A stretch of 64,000 bases of DNA from a bacterium (lineage in GTDB: Bacteria; Hinthialibacterota; Hinthialibacteria; Hinthialibacterales; Hinthialibacteraceae), in assembly GCA_963662285.2 (NCBI GenBank), contig CAXXMV010000001.1:576001-640000 (forward strand), written 5' to 3'. This document shows positions 2,813-33,792 of this stretch, in pieces (position 1 is the first letter of the stretch; every line of letters begins with the position of its first letter). The translations under genes and the position numbers were made by a program. Below the pieces are notes generated by a model. That model worked only from the letters and a program-made list of their open reading frames with translations. It ran no database searches and was not told the DNA's origin.

Positions 2813-4111
2813 CTACCTTTTTATACGGTCACTTATTTGTTGATAGCGCTTGCGGTATAAGGGGTTTTCGGGGTCTAGGTCGATAGCCTTTTGGATGGAT
2901 TGCAGGCTTTCCTGCGGCATGCCGTTGGCGAAATAGGCCCAACCCAACAGGTCGTAATCTGGAGATTCTCCCGCTTGTTGAACTACGCTCTGGAGTACTT
3001 GTAAAGCCCGCTTTAAGTCCTTGTTTGTAGAAAGCAGAATGCGTCCGATAGCCCGTTTGGCGTTGATGTAATCTGGATCAATCGACAAGGCTTTATCCAG
3101 AAAGGGCAGCGCATCGGTATATCGTTTTTGCATGGATCTTAGAATTCCCATGCTGGTCAGGAATTGGGGATTATCGGGATTAATGGCGATCAGTTCCTGA
3201 TAAAGTTGGGCGGCCTGATCTATTTTACCGGCTTGCTGATACATCAAAGCCAGGTTATAGCGGGCGGTGGCGTTCCTGGGATCAAGGCTCAAGACCCGTT
3301 TGAAATGATAATCGGCTTTGGCGTCATTTCTCATTTGATAATATACGGCGCCAGCTTCCAAATGAGTTTTGGCGGCTGCGATGGAGGGATTTTCGAGCTT
3401 AGGATCATCGGATTCCGCTTCTTCGATGAATTCCTGCTCATGTTTTTTCTGTTGCTGGAAGGTTTGCAGTACTTGTTTGGCTTCTTCTTTTTTGCCCTGT
3501 TTCCGGTAAATCTTTCCCAGCAAGTAATAAGGTTCGGGTAGAATGGGTTGGTATTTTTTGGCCAACAGGGCATGCTTCTCGGCCTCCTCCAACTGATTGG
3601 CGGCGAAAAAACGGTCGCCTAAATAAATATGAGTGGATGCATCCTCTGGGTGATATTTCAATTCATTCTGGAAGGCCTGAATCGCTTCATCCATACGGTT
3701 TAACCTTTGTAAAGCCAGGCCAAGACGTTCATTGGCGCGGGGAGCATCGGCTTGCAAGGCGATGGTTTTCCTATACCATTCGACTGCTGTTTCGTATTGA
3801 GTTAACCTGTTATAAAGGAAAGCTATCATCTGCACAATAACCGGCTGATCCGGCTTTATTTGGAGAGACTTTTTAAAAGCCTCTATGGCATCCTCATATT
3901 TTTTGCCCCGATAATAAACATAACCCAGGGCGGAATAGGCTTGGGGTGATTGCGGATATTCCCGGATAAGCTCATTGGCGACATTAATAGAGTAATCCAG
4001 CACGTTTTCGGAAGTAATTTCTGATTGCGCATAGGCATATAACGAAATGGTTAATAGCAAGAAGCAAGCGGTAATGGATTTGACTATAGATGAGTGTAGT
4101 GTGATTTTCAT
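2813..4111 (-). CDS. Exported tetratricopeptide-repeat protein
   Basis: Many TPR units (AYSALGYVYY, ARYNLALMYQ); signal peptide after MKITLH; start 4111 chosen for its GAGG RBS (ORF track start 4177). Confidence 0.85.
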   Translation of the reverse strand: MKITLHSSIVKSITACFLLLTISLYAYAQSEITSENVLDYSINVANELIREYPQSPQAYSALGYVYYRGKKYEDAIEAFKKSLQIKPDQPVIVQMIAFLYNRLTQYETAVEWYRKTIALQADAPRANERLGLALQRLNRMDEAIQAFQNELKYHPEDASTHIYLGDRFFAANQLEEAEKHALLAKKYQPILPEPYYLLGKIYRKQGKKEEAKQVLQTFQQQKKHEQEFIEEAESDDPKLENPSIAAAKTHLEAGAVYYQMRNDAKADYHFKRVLSLDPRNATARYNLALMYQQAGKIDQAAQLYQELIAINPDNPQFLTSMGILRSMQKRYTDALPFLDKALSIDPDYINAKRAIGRILLSTNKDLKRALQVLQSVVQQAGESPDYDLLGWAYFANGMPQESLQSIQKAIDLDPENPLYRKRYQQISDRIKR

Positions 4112-6765: not shown

Positions 6766-6882
6766 TAGAATTCTCCCCCCAAGCGGGTGGCTGTAAAGGC
6801 CTGGGACATGGGTAACAGGTGTTCGGGGACATAGGTAACACATTTTCTGAGTGTATTCTAGCCTTGAAAGGAGGCGAAGAAT

Positions 6883-8049
6883 ATGCCCTGGAACGAGGTG
6901 GACCTTATGTCTCTGAGAAAAGAATTCGTATTGTTGAGCCAGCAAGAAGAAAGCAACATCAGCCAATTATGTAAACGGTTTGATATCAGCCGTAAGACGG
7001 GTTACAAATGGATCAAACGGTACAAAGAAGGAGGAGTCGAAAATCTCCAAGACCGTTCCAAAAAACCCAATACTTGCCCTCATCAAACAGATAAGTCTAT
7101 CGAGCAAGCCATTACAGAAAATCGCGAAAAAGGATGGGGAGGACGCAAAATTCGCTCTCGTCTGATTCAATTGGGATACGAAAATGTTCCTAGCGCCAGC
7201 ACTATTACTGCCGTGTTACGCCGACTGGGATTGCTGGATGAAAAGGAAAGTCACAAGCACAAAGCCTATAAGCGTTTTGAAAAAGATACGCCCAACGAAT
7301 TGTGGCAAATGGATTTCAAAGGAGATTTTCCCACGCTCAAAGCACGCTGTTATCCGCTCAGCATTCTGGATGATTGCACGCGCTTTGTTCCCGGATTATT
7401 TTCGTGCGCCAATCAGCAAAGGGAAACCGTGCAAGACTCCCTGGAAAGCGTGTTCAGGATGTATGGTATGCCTCGGGCGATGTTGATGGATAACGGAAGT
7501 CCGTGGGGAGGATGCAAAACCTGCGAATACACCAGATTGACAATATGGCTGATACGATTGGGTATTCGCGTGTATCACGGTCGCCCCTACCATCCGCAAA
7601 CCCAAGGCAAGGTCGAGCGATTTCACCGGACCTTTAAGCAAGAATTGCTGATAAGGGAATCGTTTGTGGATTTGGAATATTGCCAAAGGCGGTTTGATGA
7701 GTGGCGTTATGAATACAATTTTGAGCGTCCTCACGAAGCCCTGGATATGGATGTCCCGGCTAACCATTATACGTCCAGTCCTTTTGTTTATCCGGGAAGT
7801 TTGCCGGATATCGAGTACGCGCCGGGCAGCATTATCAGGAAGGTGCAACAAGGAGGTCGGGTGGCGTACCGTGGTGAAGATTACCGGGTGAGCCGCGCCC
7901 TGGTAGGATGCCCGGTTGCCTTGAAACCCGCTATGACCGATGGGATGATGGACGTATATTTTTGCCGACAAAAAATCAAGACGCTCGATCTGCGTTTGAA
8001 TGAAATCAAAGAAGATAACTTGGCAATCCAGAAAAAGGCGTCACAATAG
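6883..8049 (+). CDS. IS481-family transposase
   Basis: MPW start, HTH (ISRKTGYKWIKRY), rve core WQMDFKG / DNGSPW / GKVERFHRT. Confidence 0.95.
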   Translation: MPWNEVDLMSLRKEFVLLSQQEESNISQLCKRFDISRKTGYKWIKRYKEGGVENLQDRSKKPNTCPHQTDKSIEQAITENREKGWGGRKIRSRLIQLGYENVPSASTITAVLRRLGLLDEKESHKHKAYKRFEKDTPNELWQMDFKGDFPTLKARCYPLSILDDCTRFVPGLFSCANQQRETVQDSLESVFRMYGMPRAMLMDNGSPWGGCKTCEYTRLTIWLIRLGIRVYHGRPYHPQTQGKVERFHRTFKQELLIRESFVDLEYCQRRFDEWRYEYNFERPHEALDMDVPANHYTSSPFVYPGSLPDIEYAPGSIIRKVQQGGRVAYRGEDYRVSRALVGCPVALKPAMTDGMMDVYFCRQKIKTLDLRLNEIKEDNLAIQKKASQ

Positions 8050-8050
8050 A

Positions 8051-8209
8051 AATTGGTTGGGCGAAACGGAAGCGGGCGCTGCAGGAGTGCAACCCGCCAG
8101 GGATAGCCGATCCGAGGTGCGAGGGATAATGCAGGAGGTGAAATATTCACCTCCTCCCTCTAAGCCAACCAATTATCCTGAGCATCTCTAGATGCCTAAA
8201 AAAAAACTC
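8051..8209 (+). ncRNA. Candidate structured RNA in the IS481-A 3' region
   Basis: Closing helix AATTGGTTGG/CCAACCAATT; inner helices GCGGG/CCCGC and AGGAGGTGA/TCACCTCCT; homologous module with covarying pairs in IS481-B; strand is assumed. Confidence 0.45.
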
Positions 8210-8496
8210 AAACAATAACCTGGGATAAATCCCGGTTTTGATAAAAAACTGTAACCCATGTCCCCGAACATGTGTTACCCATCTACCCGGTCTGTACAGT
8301 GGCAAGGGCAGTGTCCTTTCTGCCCTTGACGGAAAACTATTGAGAAACGAAATCATCCTTATGATTCAATATTCTGATTGGACCGCTAGTGGAATTACTG
8401 AAATAAGAGGAGACTGAATCAAGGGATCAGGCTCTTCAATCGACTAAACTATCAATAATAACTGACTCTAAGAACATATAAGCGGGAAACCATTAA

Positions 8497-30168: not shown

Positions 30169-30452
30169 TTACCAAGGTGTAAACCATATCCCTCTCCCAA
30201 GATTGTACAGACCGGGTAGATGGGTAACACATGTTCGGGGACATGGGTTACAGTTTTTTATCAAAACCGGGATTTATCCCAGGTTATTGTTTGAGTTTTT
30301 TTTTAGGCATCTAGAGATGCTCAGGATAATTGGTTGGCTTAGAGGGAGGAGGTGAATATTTCACCTCCTGCATTATCCCTCGCACCTCGGATCGGCTATC
30401 CCTGGCGGGTTGCACTCCTGCAGCGCCCGCTTCCGTTTCGCCCAACCAATTT

Positions 30453-31619
30453 CTATTGTGACGCCTTTTTCTGGATTGCCAAGTTATCTTCTTTGATTTC
30501 ATTCAAACGCAGATCGAGCGTCTTGATTTTTTGTCGGCAAAAATATACGTCCATCATCCCATCGGTCATAGCGGGTTTCAAGGCAACCGGGCATCCTACC
30601 AGGGCGCGGCTCACCCGGTAATCTTCACCACGGTACGCCACCCGACCTCCTTGTTGCACCTTCCTGATAATGCTGCCCGGCGCGTACTCGATATCCGGCA
30701 AACTTCCCGGATAAACAAAAGGACTGGACGTATAATGGTTAGCCGGGACATCCATATCCAGGGCTTCGTGAGGACGCTCAAAATTGTATTCATAACGCCA
30801 CTCATCAAACCGCCTTTGGCAATATTCCAAATCCACAAACGATTCCCTTATCAGCAATTCTTGCTTAAAGGTCCGGTGAAATCGCTCGACCTTGCCTTGG
30901 GTTTGCGGATGGTAGGGGCGACCGTGATACACGCGAATACCCAATCGTATCAGCCATATTGTCAATCTGGTGTATTCGCAGGTTTTGCATCCTCCCCACG
31001 GACTTCCGTTATCCATCAACATCGCCCGAGGCATACCATACATCCTGAACACGCTTTCCAGGGAGTCTTGCACGGTTTCCCTTTGCTGATTGGCGCACGA
31101 AAATAATCCGGGAACAAAGCGCGTGCAATCATCCAGAATGCTGAGCGGATAACAGCGTGCTTTGAGCGTGGGAAAATCTCCTTTGAAATCCATTTGCCAC
31201 AATTCGTTGGGCGTATCTTTTTCAAAACGCTTATAGGCTTTGTGCTTGTGACTTTCCTTTTCATCCAGCAATCCCAGTCGGCGTAACACGGCAGTAATAG
31301 TGCTGGCGCTAGGAACATTTTCGTATCCCAATTGAATCAGACGAGAGCGAATTTTGCGTCCTCCCCATCCTTTTTCGCGATTTTCTGTAATGGCTTGCTC
31401 GATAGACTTATCTGTTTGATGAGGGCAAGTATTGGGTTTTTTGGAACGGTCTTGGAGATTTTCGACTCCTCCTTCTTTGTACCGTTTGATCCATTTGTAA
31501 CCCGTCTTACGGCTGATATCAAACCGTTTACATAATTGGCTGATGTTGCTTTCTTCTTGCTGGCTCAACAATACGAATTCTTTTCTCAGAGACATAAGGT
31601 CCACCTCGTTCCAGGGCAT
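30453..31619 (-). CDS. IS481 transposase, identical protein to 6883..8049
   Basis: Identical 388-aa translation. Confidence 0.95.
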   Translation of the reverse strand: MPWNEVDLMSLRKEFVLLSQQEESNISQLCKRFDISRKTGYKWIKRYKEGGVENLQDRSKKPNTCPHQTDKSIEQAITENREKGWGGRKIRSRLIQLGYENVPSASTITAVLRRLGLLDEKESHKHKAYKRFEKDTPNELWQMDFKGDFPTLKARCYPLSILDDCTRFVPGLFSCANQQRETVQDSLESVFRMYGMPRAMLMDNGSPWGGCKTCEYTRLTIWLIRLGIRVYHGRPYHPQTQGKVERFHRTFKQELLIRESFVDLEYCQRRFDEWRYEYNFERPHEALDMDVPANHYTSSPFVYPGSLPDIEYAPGSIIRKVQQGGRVAYRGEDYRVSRALVGCPVALKPAMTDGMMDVYFCRQKIKTLDLRLNEIKEDNLAIQKKASQ

Positions 31620-31792
31620 ATTCTTCGCCTCCTTTCAAGGCTAGAATACACTCAGGGAATGTGTTACCTATGTCCCCGAACACCTGTTACCCATGTCCTG
31701 TATGAACCGGGCACATCCTTTACAGAATAAACCGGGCACATGGTTTACACAAGTCGATACTAAGAACCGACCAGAAGAAAGGAGTCGGTTCG

Positions 31793-33004
31793 ATGACTTG
31801 GAAGGAAAACAGTGCCATGGATGCAAGAATGAAATTTATTGCGGATGTCCTCCGCAAAGAAGACACACTAAGCGCCTTATGCCAAGCATATGGCATTAGT
31901 AGACCAACCGGATATAAATGGATCAAGCGCTATCAGGAAGACGGTCCTGGTGGATTGGAGGAGCGATCCCGGGCGCCCCATACCCAAGCACTAGCCGTTT
32001 CTAAAGAGACCGAAAAAGAAGTGAAGGCTATGCGAAAAAAGTTTCCGCACTACGGTCCTAAAAAATTACGGGTGGAACTGAAAAAAAAGGATGCGACGAA
32101 GCACTGGCCGGCAATCAGTACGATTGGCGAGATACTAAAACGCAAAAATCTGATTGTCAGCCGCAAGCAAAAAGATCGCGCCAAACCAAGTGGTGAAGCG
32201 TTAACCGAATTCGACCAAGTGAACCGCGTATGGTGCGCGGATTTCAAAGGAGATTTTCTAACGGGAGACGAACATCGATGTTTCCCTTTAACCGTATCGG
32301 AAGGGGCTAGCCGCTATTTACTCTGCTGCCAAGGCATGCAAGAAACCAATGGCGCATTGGTACGCGTAATTTTCGAGCAGATTTTTCGCGAGTATGGTTT
32401 ACCAGAAGTCATTCGAACGGATAACGGGGCGCCCTTTGCGTCGACCGGAATCGGAGGGTTAACCAAATTATCCGTGTGGTGGATAAAACTGAGAATTTAT
32501 CCAGAACGAATCCAGCCGGGTCGGCCTCAACAAAATGGCCGTCATGAGCGAATTAACCGGACCTTGAAAGCAGAGGCCATTTCTCCACCAGCGCCAACGC
32601 TGCGTGAACAACAAAAACGTTTTGATCAATTTCAAAAAGTGTACAACGAAGAGCGGCCTCATGAGAGTTTGGGACAACGACCTCCCGCGCAGTTGTATCA
32701 ACCCTCGCCGCGCGTCTATTCAGGTAAAGCGCCGAATTGGGAGTATCCAGAGACCATGCAGGTGCGCCAAGTGAAAACCCATGGTGAAATCAGTTGGCGA
32801 AGCAAGCATTGGTATTTGGGGGAAGCTTTGGGAGGTGAATTGGTGGGACTAGAGGAATTGGAAGAGAATAATTGGCGCATTAGTTTGGGTAACGTGATTC
32901 TCGGTTGGTTGAATATGTCAAAAGGTGAGGTGGTGCGTGAATTGTCTTTGAGACGCATCAATCATCCAAAAGCAATCAGTCACCCGGCAGTATGTCCCAG
33001 GTAA
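31793..33004 (+). CDS. IS481-family transposase B
   Basis: ISRPTGYKWIKRY, WCADFKG, DNGAPF, NGRHERINRT. Confidence 0.95.
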   Translation: MTWKENSAMDARMKFIADVLRKEDTLSALCQAYGISRPTGYKWIKRYQEDGPGGLEERSRAPHTQALAVSKETEKEVKAMRKKFPHYGPKKLRVELKKKDATKHWPAISTIGEILKRKNLIVSRKQKDRAKPSGEALTEFDQVNRVWCADFKGDFLTGDEHRCFPLTVSEGASRYLLCCQGMQETNGALVRVIFEQIFREYGLPEVIRTDNGAPFASTGIGGLTKLSVWWIKLRIYPERIQPGRPQQNGRHERINRTLKAEAISPPAPTLREQQKRFDQFQKVYNEERPHESLGQRPPAQLYQPSPRVYSGKAPNWEYPETMQVRQVKTHGEISWRSKHWYLGEALGGELVGLEELEENNWRISLGNVILGWLNMSKGEVVRELSLRRINHPKAISHPAVCPR

Positions 33005-33155
33005 AAAATGAGCTAGGGAAGTATCAAGATGAGGAATAATTCAGGTATTAATTTTCCTGAGATTGAATCCAGATCGTCCCTTTTTCGAGAAAATCAAAGA
33101 GCGCACGGGTGAAAAAAAAGGTGGCAATATCGGGGGCGCCGCCCCCGTACCCCCG

Positions 33156-33326
33156 GAGTTTTTTTAGGCATTAGCACAAACTCCAGATAGTATGCAAAAA
33201 AAAGCAAAGGGACGGTTCTAAATCCGTCCCTTTAGCGACTATCCGTCGCCCGTGCACCAGGATATCCCTTGACAGGTTGCTCTCCAGCAGAGCCTGTCTC
33301 CGTTTCTCCTGGTGATAATAACTATC
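33156..33326 (-). ncRNA. Candidate structured RNA in the IS481-B 3' region, homologous to 8051-8209
   Basis: CACCAGGA/TCCTGGTG helix encloses GAAACGGAGACAGGCTCTGCTGGAGAGCAACCTGTCAAGGGATA; shared ATGCCTAAAAAAACTC tail. Confidence 0.45.
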
Positions 33327-33792
33327 GGATAGCTCGAAATAATCTGTAGAAAAAGAAGTAAAAAAACAGTTCTAGCAAGTAAGCAATTCAGAATACGTTG
33401 ATATACCTGAAAACGGATTATCTCTTTAAAAAAACAGATAAGTTGCCATAATTTGCGAGACAAAAGTGTAAACCATGTGCCCGGTCTAAAGTGTAAACTA
33501 TGTGCCCGGTCATTCAGTCCCAGGCCTTTACAAAGATTGGGAGAGGTTAGGAGAGGGTTGATAGCGACCACTTTTGTAAAGAAATATCCAACGATGTTAG
33601 TAGGCAATGAATCCAAACAAAACTTGTGGATAATGACCAGAGTTTTGGGGAAATGGATTTTGGATATATAACCATTTATATTTTTTTGACTTAGATATAA
33701 ATAATACTGTAGCCAAACATTCCTCTCCCAAGATTGGGAGAGGTCAGGTGAGGGTTGATAACAATCAACCTCGAGAAGAGATAGTTATTTTC

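Follow-up and report, generated by a model that had tools for sequence, protein, structure and literature searches.

Two insertion sequences that share a non-coding module

We analyzed a 64,000 nt stretch of a bacterial contig (CAXXMV010000001.1, Hinthialibacteraceae), hereafter called the window, and a non-coding module present in the insertion sequences (IS) that it carries. The module has a two-domain covarying fold with a preferred folding strand, is accompanied by promoter-like and terminator-like signals, is found in many phyla and has been exchanged between families of mobile elements. Throughout the text the module is the feature under study, positions are those of the window, and loci obtained from genomes, plasmids and phages are designated by L-numbers.

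The window contains two 1507 bp copies of one element, IS481-A, which differ at 2 positions, neither of them within the module. A second element, IS481-B, was inserted in the left inverted repeat of the second copy, which explains that the final 12 bp of this copy are displaced to 33521-33532. The transposases of the two elements are 35% identical, and both possess rve and IS481 leucine-zipper domains. With the NCBIfam IS481 model, for which the equivalog cutoff is 224 bits, IS481-A scores 268 bits; IS481 is also the best family for IS481-B, with a score (215 bits) that stays below the cutoff. Other traits of IS481 membership are the inverted repeats and the target duplications of 5 bp (A) and 4 bp (B). 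In both elements the module occupies the segment that separates the stop codon of the transposase gene from the right inverted repeat. It lies on the same strand as this gene in IS481-A and on the opposite strand in IS481-B, which is the orientation given for each in an earlier note on this DNA.

The same note had claimed a core common to IS481-A and IS481-B. A degenerate 32-nt pattern of this core matches the window at 8063-8094 (+), 30408-30439 (-) and 33275-33306 (-), i.e. 3 matches compared to 0.00 expected from 100 shuffles, and the claim stands. The A and B modules can be aligned from the helix just 5' of GAAACGGA through a tail of the form ATGCCT-A(7-9)-CTC. Compared to the tail consensus, B is exact and A has 2 mismatches; the A run of the IS481-A tail (8198-8206) contains 9 A, against 6-7 in most relatives. 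Both window modules are more stable in folding than their shuffled controls (z = -3.95 and -5.88). Because A and B are separated by a 1-nt indel, coding across the core is unlikely. A small open reading frame (ORF) starting at the ATG of the tail was also rejected, since in many copies a stop codon comes after ATG CCT and the frames vary among copies.

Fold and compensatory changes

Species-representative genomes were scanned with a pattern that fixes GAAACGGA, CTGC, GGAG, GCAA and GGGATA and leaves the helices free. From the matches listed we retained 76 distinct sequences of domain 1 and 65 distinct full modules; a MAFFT alignment comprised 43 full modules. Domain 1 is composed of three helices (P1, P2 and P3). 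Its proposed pairs are formed in 90.5% of the cells compared to 71.4% in shuffled alignments, and 0/500 shuffles reach the observed value. Changes on both sides of a pair were observed in 253 cells (83 in shuffles), and every slid control is far lower. They concern 7/7 pairs of P1 and 4/5 pairs of P2, the latter helix being paired in 97.4% of the cells. The double change GCGGG:CCCGC versus ACAGG:CCTGT, which the earlier note had read as covariation from the window modules, is thus a particular case of a strong tendency in the larger alignment. The P3 pair that the pattern leaves free is distributed as follows: UA in 57 cases, CG in 7, GC in 7, AU in 2, and other or unpaired in 3. P1, P2 and P3 were recovered unaided by RNAalifold on the plain MAFFT alignment of the 43 full modules.

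Two further pairings were considered. An alternative P3 pairing of GC(G/U)CU with AG(U/A)GC was rejected, as its bulge position shows no covariation with the loop-closing position, and positions 33 and 38 do covary. Pairing of the variable tail position with variable positions of loops or bulges, as a pseudoknot or a tertiary contact, was not backed by covariation in 53 sequences.

In the 65 modules, domain 2 consists of P4, a long helix with a small internal loop of purines (5' GA(C), 3' (Y)AGA), and of P5, a variable hairpin that caps it; the 16-nt tail that follows is unpaired in the folds. MAFFT was unable to align the variable part, and P4 was therefore assessed by comparing the pairing of a module's own segments with that of segments from unrelated modules. 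The mean duplex energy is -17.85 kcal/mol for cognate segments and -8.18 for non-cognate ones; the cognate duplex beats at least 90% of the non-cognates in 58/65 modules (p = 3.5e-12).

The earlier note was not right on one point of the fold. It had taken AATTGGTTGG/CCAACCAATT as the closing helix of IS481-A, homologous to GATAGT/ACTATC of IS481-B; the conserved helix of A is formed by 8114-8130 with 8172-8188 (Table 1). The complementarity of AATTGGTTGG and CCAACCAATT is true and is present in the minimum-energy fold of IS481-A. It was rejected as a conserved closing helix since relatives are without it and it overlaps P1 and P4, and it may represent a local alternative fold of IS481-A. Positions 8051-8060 and 8165-8174 are perfectly complementary over 10 bp, which is specific to IS481-A. 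This pairing shares nucleotides with P1 and with the 3' strand of P4, and in the IS481-A copy, whose P1 has two mismatches, it could form an alternative fold.

Table 1. Coordinates of the module, its predicted parts and its host elements in the window (A, IS481-A; B, IS481-B; P, helix; IL, internal loop).
Feature	Position	Strand	Remarks
IS481-A copy 1	6792..8298	+	1507 bp; 5-bp target duplication GTGGC at 6787-6791 and 8299-8303
IS481-A transposase gene	6883..8049	+	388 aa; 268 bits on NCBIfam IS481
Promoter-like site, A	8020..8047	+	TTGGCA-16-CACAAT; overlaps transposase gene end
Predicted RNA domain 1, A	8056..8113	+	P1, IL1, P2, P3; covariance model 75.3 bits
P1, A	8056-8062 with 8106-8112	+	two mismatches in this copy
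IL1, A	GAAACGGA 8063-8070 opposite CAGGGATA 8098-8105	+	
P2, A	8072-8076 with 8093-8097	+	
P3, A	8080-8083 with 8088-8091	+	loop GGAG
Predicted RNA domain 2, A	8114..8188	+	fold, and cognate/non-cognate pairing across 65 modules
P4a, A	8114-8120 with 8182-8188	+	
IL2, A	GA 8121-8122 opposite GA 8180-8181	+	
P4b, A	8123-8130 with 8172-8179	+	
P5 hairpin, A	8134-8154	+	
Conserved tail, A	8192..8209	+	ATGCCT-A9-CTC; family consensus ATGCCTNAAAAAACTC; unpaired in folds
Terminator-like hairpin and T run, A	8220..8245	+	directly 3' of tail
IS481-A copy 2, main part	30204..31698	-	last 12 bp at 33521-33532; duplication AAGAT at 30199-30203 and 33533-33537
Second module copy (domains 1, 2, tail)	30293..30446	-	identical to first A copy
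IS481-B	31699..33516	+	1818 bp; 4-bp duplication GTCC at 31695-31698 and 33517-33520
IS481-B transposase gene	31793..33004	+	403 aa
GC hairpin just past tail, B	33132..33146	-	equivalent of P6 hairpin after tail in many relatives
Tail, B	33156..33171	-	exact match to consensus
Predicted RNA domain 2, B	33172..33254	-	P4 includes GGATAGT paired with ACTATCT
P5 hairpin, B	33205-33234	-	then T8; terminator-like
Predicted RNA domain 1, B	33255..33314	-	P1, IL1, P2, P3; covariance model 79.6 bits

Folding strand and transcription signals

The two strands of the module are not equivalent. P4 folds better on the GAAACGGA strand than on its complement in 57/65 modules (p = 3e-10), and the whole of domain 2 does so in 51/65 (p = 7e-8). 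The preference is weak for domain 1, for which the GAAACGGA strand is better in 34/65 modules (p = 0.036). It is because of G-U pairs that the GAAACGGA strand is the better folder.

Upstream regions were then considered according to the host. Among 56 non-Bacteroidota regions, a sigma-70-like promoter whose -10 box ends 10-24 nt before the core is present in 10 cases (0.8 in shuffled sequences). In 8 of these 10 the box ends at exactly -13, in agreement with the IS481-A site, and an exact TTGACA is found in 16/56 regions. For the Bacteroidota-type loci we searched TAnnTT(T/C)G, which we take to be the Bacteroidetes promoter box. It ends at -10 to -12 in 10/24 loci, against 0.8 in shuffled sequences, and 19/24 have TTTG within the same interval. 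The promoter-like boxes upstream of the module thus appear to match the host's own type, and from their positions the predicted start site is located at the first nucleotides of P1; in IS481-A the RNA would start at about 8054.

On the other side of the module, a GC hairpin is usually present 3' of the tail where no gene abuts, with a T run in some cases. The hairpin at 8220-8245 is the likely 3' end of the RNA in IS481-A. P5 was rejected as a general RNA terminator, given that just 17/65 modules pass the terminator rule at P5 and that the 3' strand of P4 pairs in a strand-specific manner. It is the promoter and terminator evidence that leads us to favor an RNA over a structure of single-stranded DNA (ssDNA).

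Distribution among genomes and insertion sequences

The genome scan returned at least 100 stretches, in at least 72 assemblies by accession prefix and at least 11 phylum-level names. According to record titles, the lineages include Bacteroidota, Acidobacteriota, Planctomycetota (with Brocadiaceae), Verrucomicrobiota, Nitrospirota and Desulfobacterota-type bacteria, as well as Cloacimonadota, Armatimonadota, Lentisphaerota, Sumerlaeota and Hydrogenedentota. Among the matches listed, one assembly comes from an isolate (Oligosphaera ethanolica DSM 24202) and nearly all other carriers are metagenome-assembled genomes (MAG); several copies per genome are common, and many are located at contig ends.

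In multicopy genomes the module is included in the repeated unit of IS3, IS481 and IS110 elements. The repeat extends 103 nt upstream and ~1461 nt downstream of the core in a Saprospiraceae IS3 element, and 1312 nt upstream and 276 nt downstream in a Terriglobia IS481 element. The module likewise lies within the repeat of Verrucomicrobiales IS3 and Acidobacteriaceae IS110 elements. To identify the carriers, flanking ORFs were scanned in Pfam (73) and in NCBIfam (20, 24 and 71). NCBIfam cutoffs were passed for five families: IS3, where the module is co-directional in 6 elements and convergent in 11; IS481 (window A, L021 and L045); IS21 (IstA in L029, IstB in L004 and L072); IS110 (L046); and a Zn-binding variant of IS256 (L006, L022 and L050). 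A match to ISL3 at L012 is partial. No match to IS4, IS5, IS630, IS66 or IS200/605 was found among these ORFs in Pfam and NCBIfam. The earlier note had presented the module as a passenger of IS481 elements. Carriage by IS481 is correct, and restriction to IS481 is not: the module is also present in IS3, IS21, IS110 and IS256-variant elements, in two repL plasmids and in two Microviridae.

The position relative to the transposase gene follows two main arrangements. The module is co-directional and 3' of the gene in IS481-A, L016, L021, L043, L045, L055, L056, L066 and others. Where gene and module converge, the stop codon of the transposase directly adjoins the tail, and in IS256-variant and some IS3 elements the last transposase codons run through it. 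In six Bacteroidota loci (L006, L022, L028, L036, L044 and L060) the C-terminus of the IS256 Zn-variant, ...FIDEF(F/L)K(A/V), is encoded by the reverse complement of the tail, and the NCBIfam IS256-variant profile covers this C-terminus. At L035, L054 and L059 the module and the downstream IS end are intact and the upstream transposase frame is broken into short ORFs; at these loci the RNA seems to outlast the transposase.

Several loci present particular surroundings. An IS21 element of a Chryseosolibacter MAG (L029, ~1890-2100) has an antisense domain 1 between istA and istB, an unusual placement, with no recognizable tail. At L016 a group II intron lies beyond the IS end after the module, represented by a sub-threshold Rfam D1-D4 piece (3277-3409) and a reverse transcriptase domain (2183-2959). 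A tRNA gene adjoins the module-bearing IS481 of L021 (1683-1755), and in a Cloacimonadota MAG (L061, 1945-2979) a gene for a DUF1670 protein runs co-directionally into the module. Three other Cloacimonadota loci (L002, L019 and L079) contain GTGGCTC-like repeated words 20-130 nt past the tail, which resemble the subterminal transposase-binding repeats of a larger transposon end; no transposase was identified within their 2-kb flanks. In the window itself, IS481-A copy 2 occupies the loop of a ~40-nt palindromic repeat, CCTCTCCCAAGATTGGGAGAGG... (30190-30203 with 33533-33565), of which a second copy is found ~190 nt further, at 33721-33760. It looks like a repetitive extragenic palindromic (REP)-like element that serves as an insertion target.

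Exchange between element families, plasmids and phages

Modules are grouped by host lineage and not by IS family. In Acidobacteriota, IS481-borne (co-directional) and IS3-borne (convergent) modules are 79-83% identical. Among the matches listed, the closest to the window B module are an IS21-borne copy (77%) and an IS3-borne copy (74%), and the closest to the window A module are L039 and a Brocadiaceae IS3-type element (72% each). Between IS3-borne and IS481-borne copies, the similar stretch runs from ~10-15 nt 5' of the core to the final bases of the tail. The conserved unit thus has the same limits as the predicted RNA. The view of the earlier note, that of an independent and orientation-free structured module, is in line with these results: the module is not a remnant of either transposase gene.

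Weak blastn matches were also observed in three plasmids and two phages. A covariance model of domain 1, built without plasmid and phage sequences, recognizes these copies with 48-65 bits (E 4e-12 to 3e-18) and finds nothing other than the modules in the window. Two small plasmids of Tunicatimonas pelagia contain domain 1 just 3' of repL (51.5 and 48.1 bits), followed by a different short region and then by a terminator-like hairpin with a T run. Plasmid pACPOL3 of Acidisarcina polymorpha contains a full module with its tail after an IS110 transposase gene (59.9 bits). In two near-identical Microviridae, domain 1 is located on the gene strand, presumably the packaged strand (64.8 and 59.8 bits), with a hairpin and T run ~20 nt past it, at the edge of a large non-coding region. 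In these independently found copies P1-P3 are kept. IL1 is exact in L102 and L103 and differs at 2-4 positions in the other three, and the P3 loop is GGAG, GGGA, GAGG or GAAG. Further blastn searches were more restricted in their results: a Bacteroidota-type module had no match in plasmids and phages, the plasmid variant matched only the two Tunicatimonas records among plasmids, and the phage copy only the two Microviridae records among phages.

Interpretation of the module

We give about an even chance to the reading that the module is an independently transcribed structured small RNA, of ~160-200 nt, which is exchanged between mobile elements and acts in trans. It would correspond to a small-RNA gene with its own promoter, which many unrelated mobile elements would carry as a passenger cassette. 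This RNA would start at helix P1 and be composed of two domains: domain 1, with P1, a near-invariant IL1 (GAAACGGA opposite (C)(A)AGGGAUA), P2, and P3 with a GGAG-type loop; and domain 2, with the long P4 broken by its purine loop and the variable P5 cap. A single-stranded 16-nt tail, AUGCCUNAAAAAACUC, would come next, and then usually the GC hairpin or terminator where no gene abuts. Such an RNA would act in trans regardless of the neighboring transposase. Its conserved loops may be the handle for a conserved cellular partner (protein or small ligand), and the single-stranded stretch before the terminator may be an interaction or specificity segment. Loops conserved to this degree, framed by helices that covary, are a usual trait of riboswitches, ribozymes and core ribonucleoprotein RNAs. 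It is likely that the module has a specific molecular activity, because the loops are conserved across many phyla and the helices covary.

Several observations weigh against this reading. The strict promoter rule is failed by 46/56 non-Bacteroidota upstream regions, no promoter-like site passes the scan on the module strand of IS481-B, and domain 1 of the Microviridae has no separate promoter and shares its sequence in part with the final codons of a small hypothetical gene. The ends of the RNA are placed from sequence signals, and P5 itself satisfies the terminator rule in the 17/65 modules mentioned above; if it acted as a terminator, the 3' strand of P4 and the tail would be cut off. Conservation must also be read with care. 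The invariance of IL1, of three P3 pairs and of the P3 loop in the alignment is a product of the scan pattern, in which they are fixed, and the pattern-independent check of IL1 comprises 5 sequences, 2 of them exact and 3 differing at 2-4 positions. Since the tail doubles as the last codons of the convergent transposase in some elements, its conservation there may be partly protein-coding. Finally, outside the modules the tail has no complement in the window better than expected by chance: there are 6 matches at up to 3 mismatches, compared to 3.2 expected, and three of these six are the modules themselves.

ISs are defined as carrying little beyond a transposase, and a conserved RNA gene, if this reading is true, would add a new layer to transposon biology. 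The grounds for considering it are the swapping of the module among at least 5 unrelated IS families, its retention beside fragmented transposases, and the presence of its core domain on small plasmids and ssDNA phages. The family would also explain ~200 bp of "non-coding" DNA in many annotated ISs and would make it possible to recognize a large number of elements in phyla that have been little studied.

Among the alternatives, a replication or priming module is the one that survives best, and we consider it unlikely. RNA or folded ssDNA would start complementary-strand or circle replication on IS minicircles, RepL plasmids and Microviridae. In passages of a preprint by Chandler, Ross and Varani (10.1101/2023.06.07.543989), circular intermediates are listed for IS3, IS21, IS256, IS110/IS1111 and ISL3, and IS481 does not appear in that list. 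All the neighbor families identified here would then be circle-forming (IS3, IS21, IS110, IS256, a partial ISL3, and the IS3-related IS481, absent from that list), and the flanking ORFs scanned are unmatched by IS4, IS5, IS630 and IS66. However, rve-type families dominate the sample, and this family restriction is possibly a sampling effect. The location of domain 1, directly after repL in two plasmids and on the gene strand beside the large non-coding region in Microviridae, is consistent with a role in replication. So are the free orientation, which is natural on a circle, the tracking of host lineage, as expected if the module were read by host replication enzymes, and the strand-specific folding, which fits ssDNA as well as RNA. 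Yet a DNA-level origin has no need of double-stranded promoter boxes at a fixed distance, nor of terminators, and an RNA from the phage copy would have the sense of the viral strand and be unable to prime on it. Each version, RNA primer or DNA origin, thus fails in one of the contexts, the former because of the phage sense and the latter because of the promoter boxes. Besides, the copies after repL and those of the phages are without domain 2 and tail, and to our knowledge the replication of IS circles has not been reported. It is decidedly unlikely, in particular, that the module serves small circular DNA as a portable signal, adapted to the host, at which DNA synthesis starts, and lets an excised IS minicircle or its displaced strand be copied; if it were so, IS circles would be short-lived replicons and not dead-end intermediates.

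A regulator acting in cis has a similarly small probability. It could be a leader that senses a ligand or a factor and controls read-through, either antisense into the transposase gene or outward through the IS end, or else just a terminator or insulator that works in both directions, together with a strong convergent promoter. The aptamer-like level of conservation of the loop nucleotides across phyla, the predicted start a few nucleotides before P1 as in riboswitches, the hairpin with T run of 17/65 modules and the convergent transposase stop that abuts or overlaps the tail all point in this direction. Against this, both orientations occur even within IS3 (6 co-directional, 11 convergent), and a co-directional module has nothing to repress by antisense. 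No common class of downstream genes and no alternative anti-terminator pairing were seen, and a plain terminator would leave the invariant loops, the covarying P4 around P5 and the tail unexplained.

The architecture also resembles that of RNAs in which a scaffold is followed by a 3' guide. Here the scaffold would be formed by domains 1 and 2, and the 16-nt tail would serve as a fixed guide for an RNA-guided protein encoded elsewhere in the genome. The tail is indeed 16-17 nt long, single-stranded and located exactly at the 3' limit of the conserved cassette, and the plasmid and phage versions keep domain 1 with other single-stranded segments before terminators. We regard this explanation as highly unlikely: no TnpB, IscB, Cas or Argonaute-like gene lies beside any locus among the flanking ORFs scanned, the supposed guide is conserved across phyla and not variable, and it has no target in the window besides the module itself.

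It is scarcely probable that the module is a new self-cleaving or otherwise catalytic RNA, possibly spreading at the RNA level, with cassette limits that correspond to RNA ends. Two conserved internal loops in adjacent helices could dock, and the similarity of cassettes runs from the predicted start site to the tail. Small ribozymes, too, have a cross-phylum, multicopy distribution tied to mobile elements. But no known ribozyme model matches, and no cleavage-site signature is definable. Nor is a reverse transcriptase consistently nearby (the one such neighbor, at L016, is that of a group II intron), and each copy has a normal upstream promoter, which retro-insertion could not supply.

A non-functional repeat, i.e. 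a miniature mobile element or a recombination scar hitchhiking in ISs with meaningless hairpins, would fit the multicopy occurrence, often at contig ends, and is disfavored to the point of being barely credible, since pairing is kept through compensatory changes over at least 11 phylum-level names with fixed loops, pairing is strand-specific, the promoter type is adapted to the host, and the module persists where transposase frames are fragmented (L035, L054, L059).

Comparison with known structured RNAs

The small-RNA reading was compared with described systems. The whole window gave 0 matches at the gathering threshold to the 4227 models of Rfam 15. With E up to 10, the two window modules gave unrelated weak matches only. 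With E up to 0.1, 19 diverse loci gave a tRNA, a piece of group II intron and Flavo-1, none of them on the module. Thus no Rfam 15 family matches the window or the modules. Solibacter-1, Soil-1 and Rhodopirellula-1 (Weinberg et al. 2010, PMC2864571), which were never in Rfam, differ from the module to judge by the supplementary alignments of that paper. Literature searches, judged mostly by abstracts, returned no description of such an RNA. The RNA family appears to be previously uncatalogued, the novelty being the family and its spread across element types, and it may be described in work that our searches did not reach. Integron attC sites, K-turns, CsrA-binding GGA hairpins and the loop docking of hairpin ribozymes were set aside, as their defining features are not visible.

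The omega RNAs of TnpB and IscB (HEARO and IS605-orfB in Rfam) are similarly widespread and tied to transposons, with a scaffold and a short 3' single-stranded segment. They differ in that the 3' segment is here conserved and not taken from flanking DNA, and in that no Rfam match was obtained; no TnpB or IscB domain was found among the flanking ORFs scanned in Pfam or NCBIfam. RNA-OUT of IS10 and art200 of IS200 are also small RNAs within an IS, antisense to the transposase mRNA as the module is when convergent. Each of these RNAs is specific to its element, whose transposase mRNA it pairs with in the 5' region, whereas the module is 3' of the transposase gene, often co-directional, and conserved across unrelated transposases. 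A fixed antisense position over the transposase translation start was not observed.

The single-strand origins of rolling-circle plasmids, the complementary-strand origins of ssDNA phages and the ColE1 RNA II primer share with the module a strand-specific folded length of ~60-200 nt, the exchange of cassettes among small circular replicons and the adaptation to the host. Unlike them, the module has promoter boxes and terminators and is mostly found inside ISs, for which we know of no origin of these types. A bias of the folding strand is seen and the phage copy is on the gene strand; yet IS3 elements contain the module in both orientations, with normal promoter boxes.

Riboswitch aptamers have the same near-invariant loops framed by covarying helices across phyla, and a start just before P1. 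A conserved aptamer-like part within covarying helices is present here, the loops being fixed by the pattern. The module is not followed by genes of a common pathway: downstream of it, a convergent transposase gene terminates, the IS ends, or unrelated genes are present. It also differs from riboswitches by the absence of a recognizable expression platform, by its free orientation in the host element and by the lack of a match to Rfam riboswitches. As regards ribozymes, no Rfam match to hammerhead, twister, twister-sister, pistol, hatchet, HDV-like or hairpin ribozymes was found on the modules or the 19 loci.

The bridge RNA (seekRNA) of IS110/IS1111 resembles the module in being a structured non-coding RNA of ~150-200 nt in the non-coding end of an IS, with conserved internal loops, and IS110 elements are among the loci studied here (L046, L073 and L103). 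Bridge RNAs are confined to a single recombinase family, and the guides in their loops, directed at the target and at the IS ends, differ from element to element. The module keeps its loops unchanged next to rve, DEDD and IS256-type transposases whose ends are unrelated; it is 3'-sided, in either orientation, with promoter-like boxes of its own. Among the loci examined, only these three have a DEDD neighbor, most neighbors being rve-type or IS256-type. Neither IL1 nor the tail changes from one unrelated IS to another; IL1 is fixed by the scan pattern, yet it is kept in the independently found L102 and L103. GOLLD and ROOL are large structured RNAs carried on mobile DNA, mainly prophages, and their function was unknown at discovery. 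The module is, like them, conserved, structured and linked to mobile elements; it is far smaller and is embedded in several IS families.

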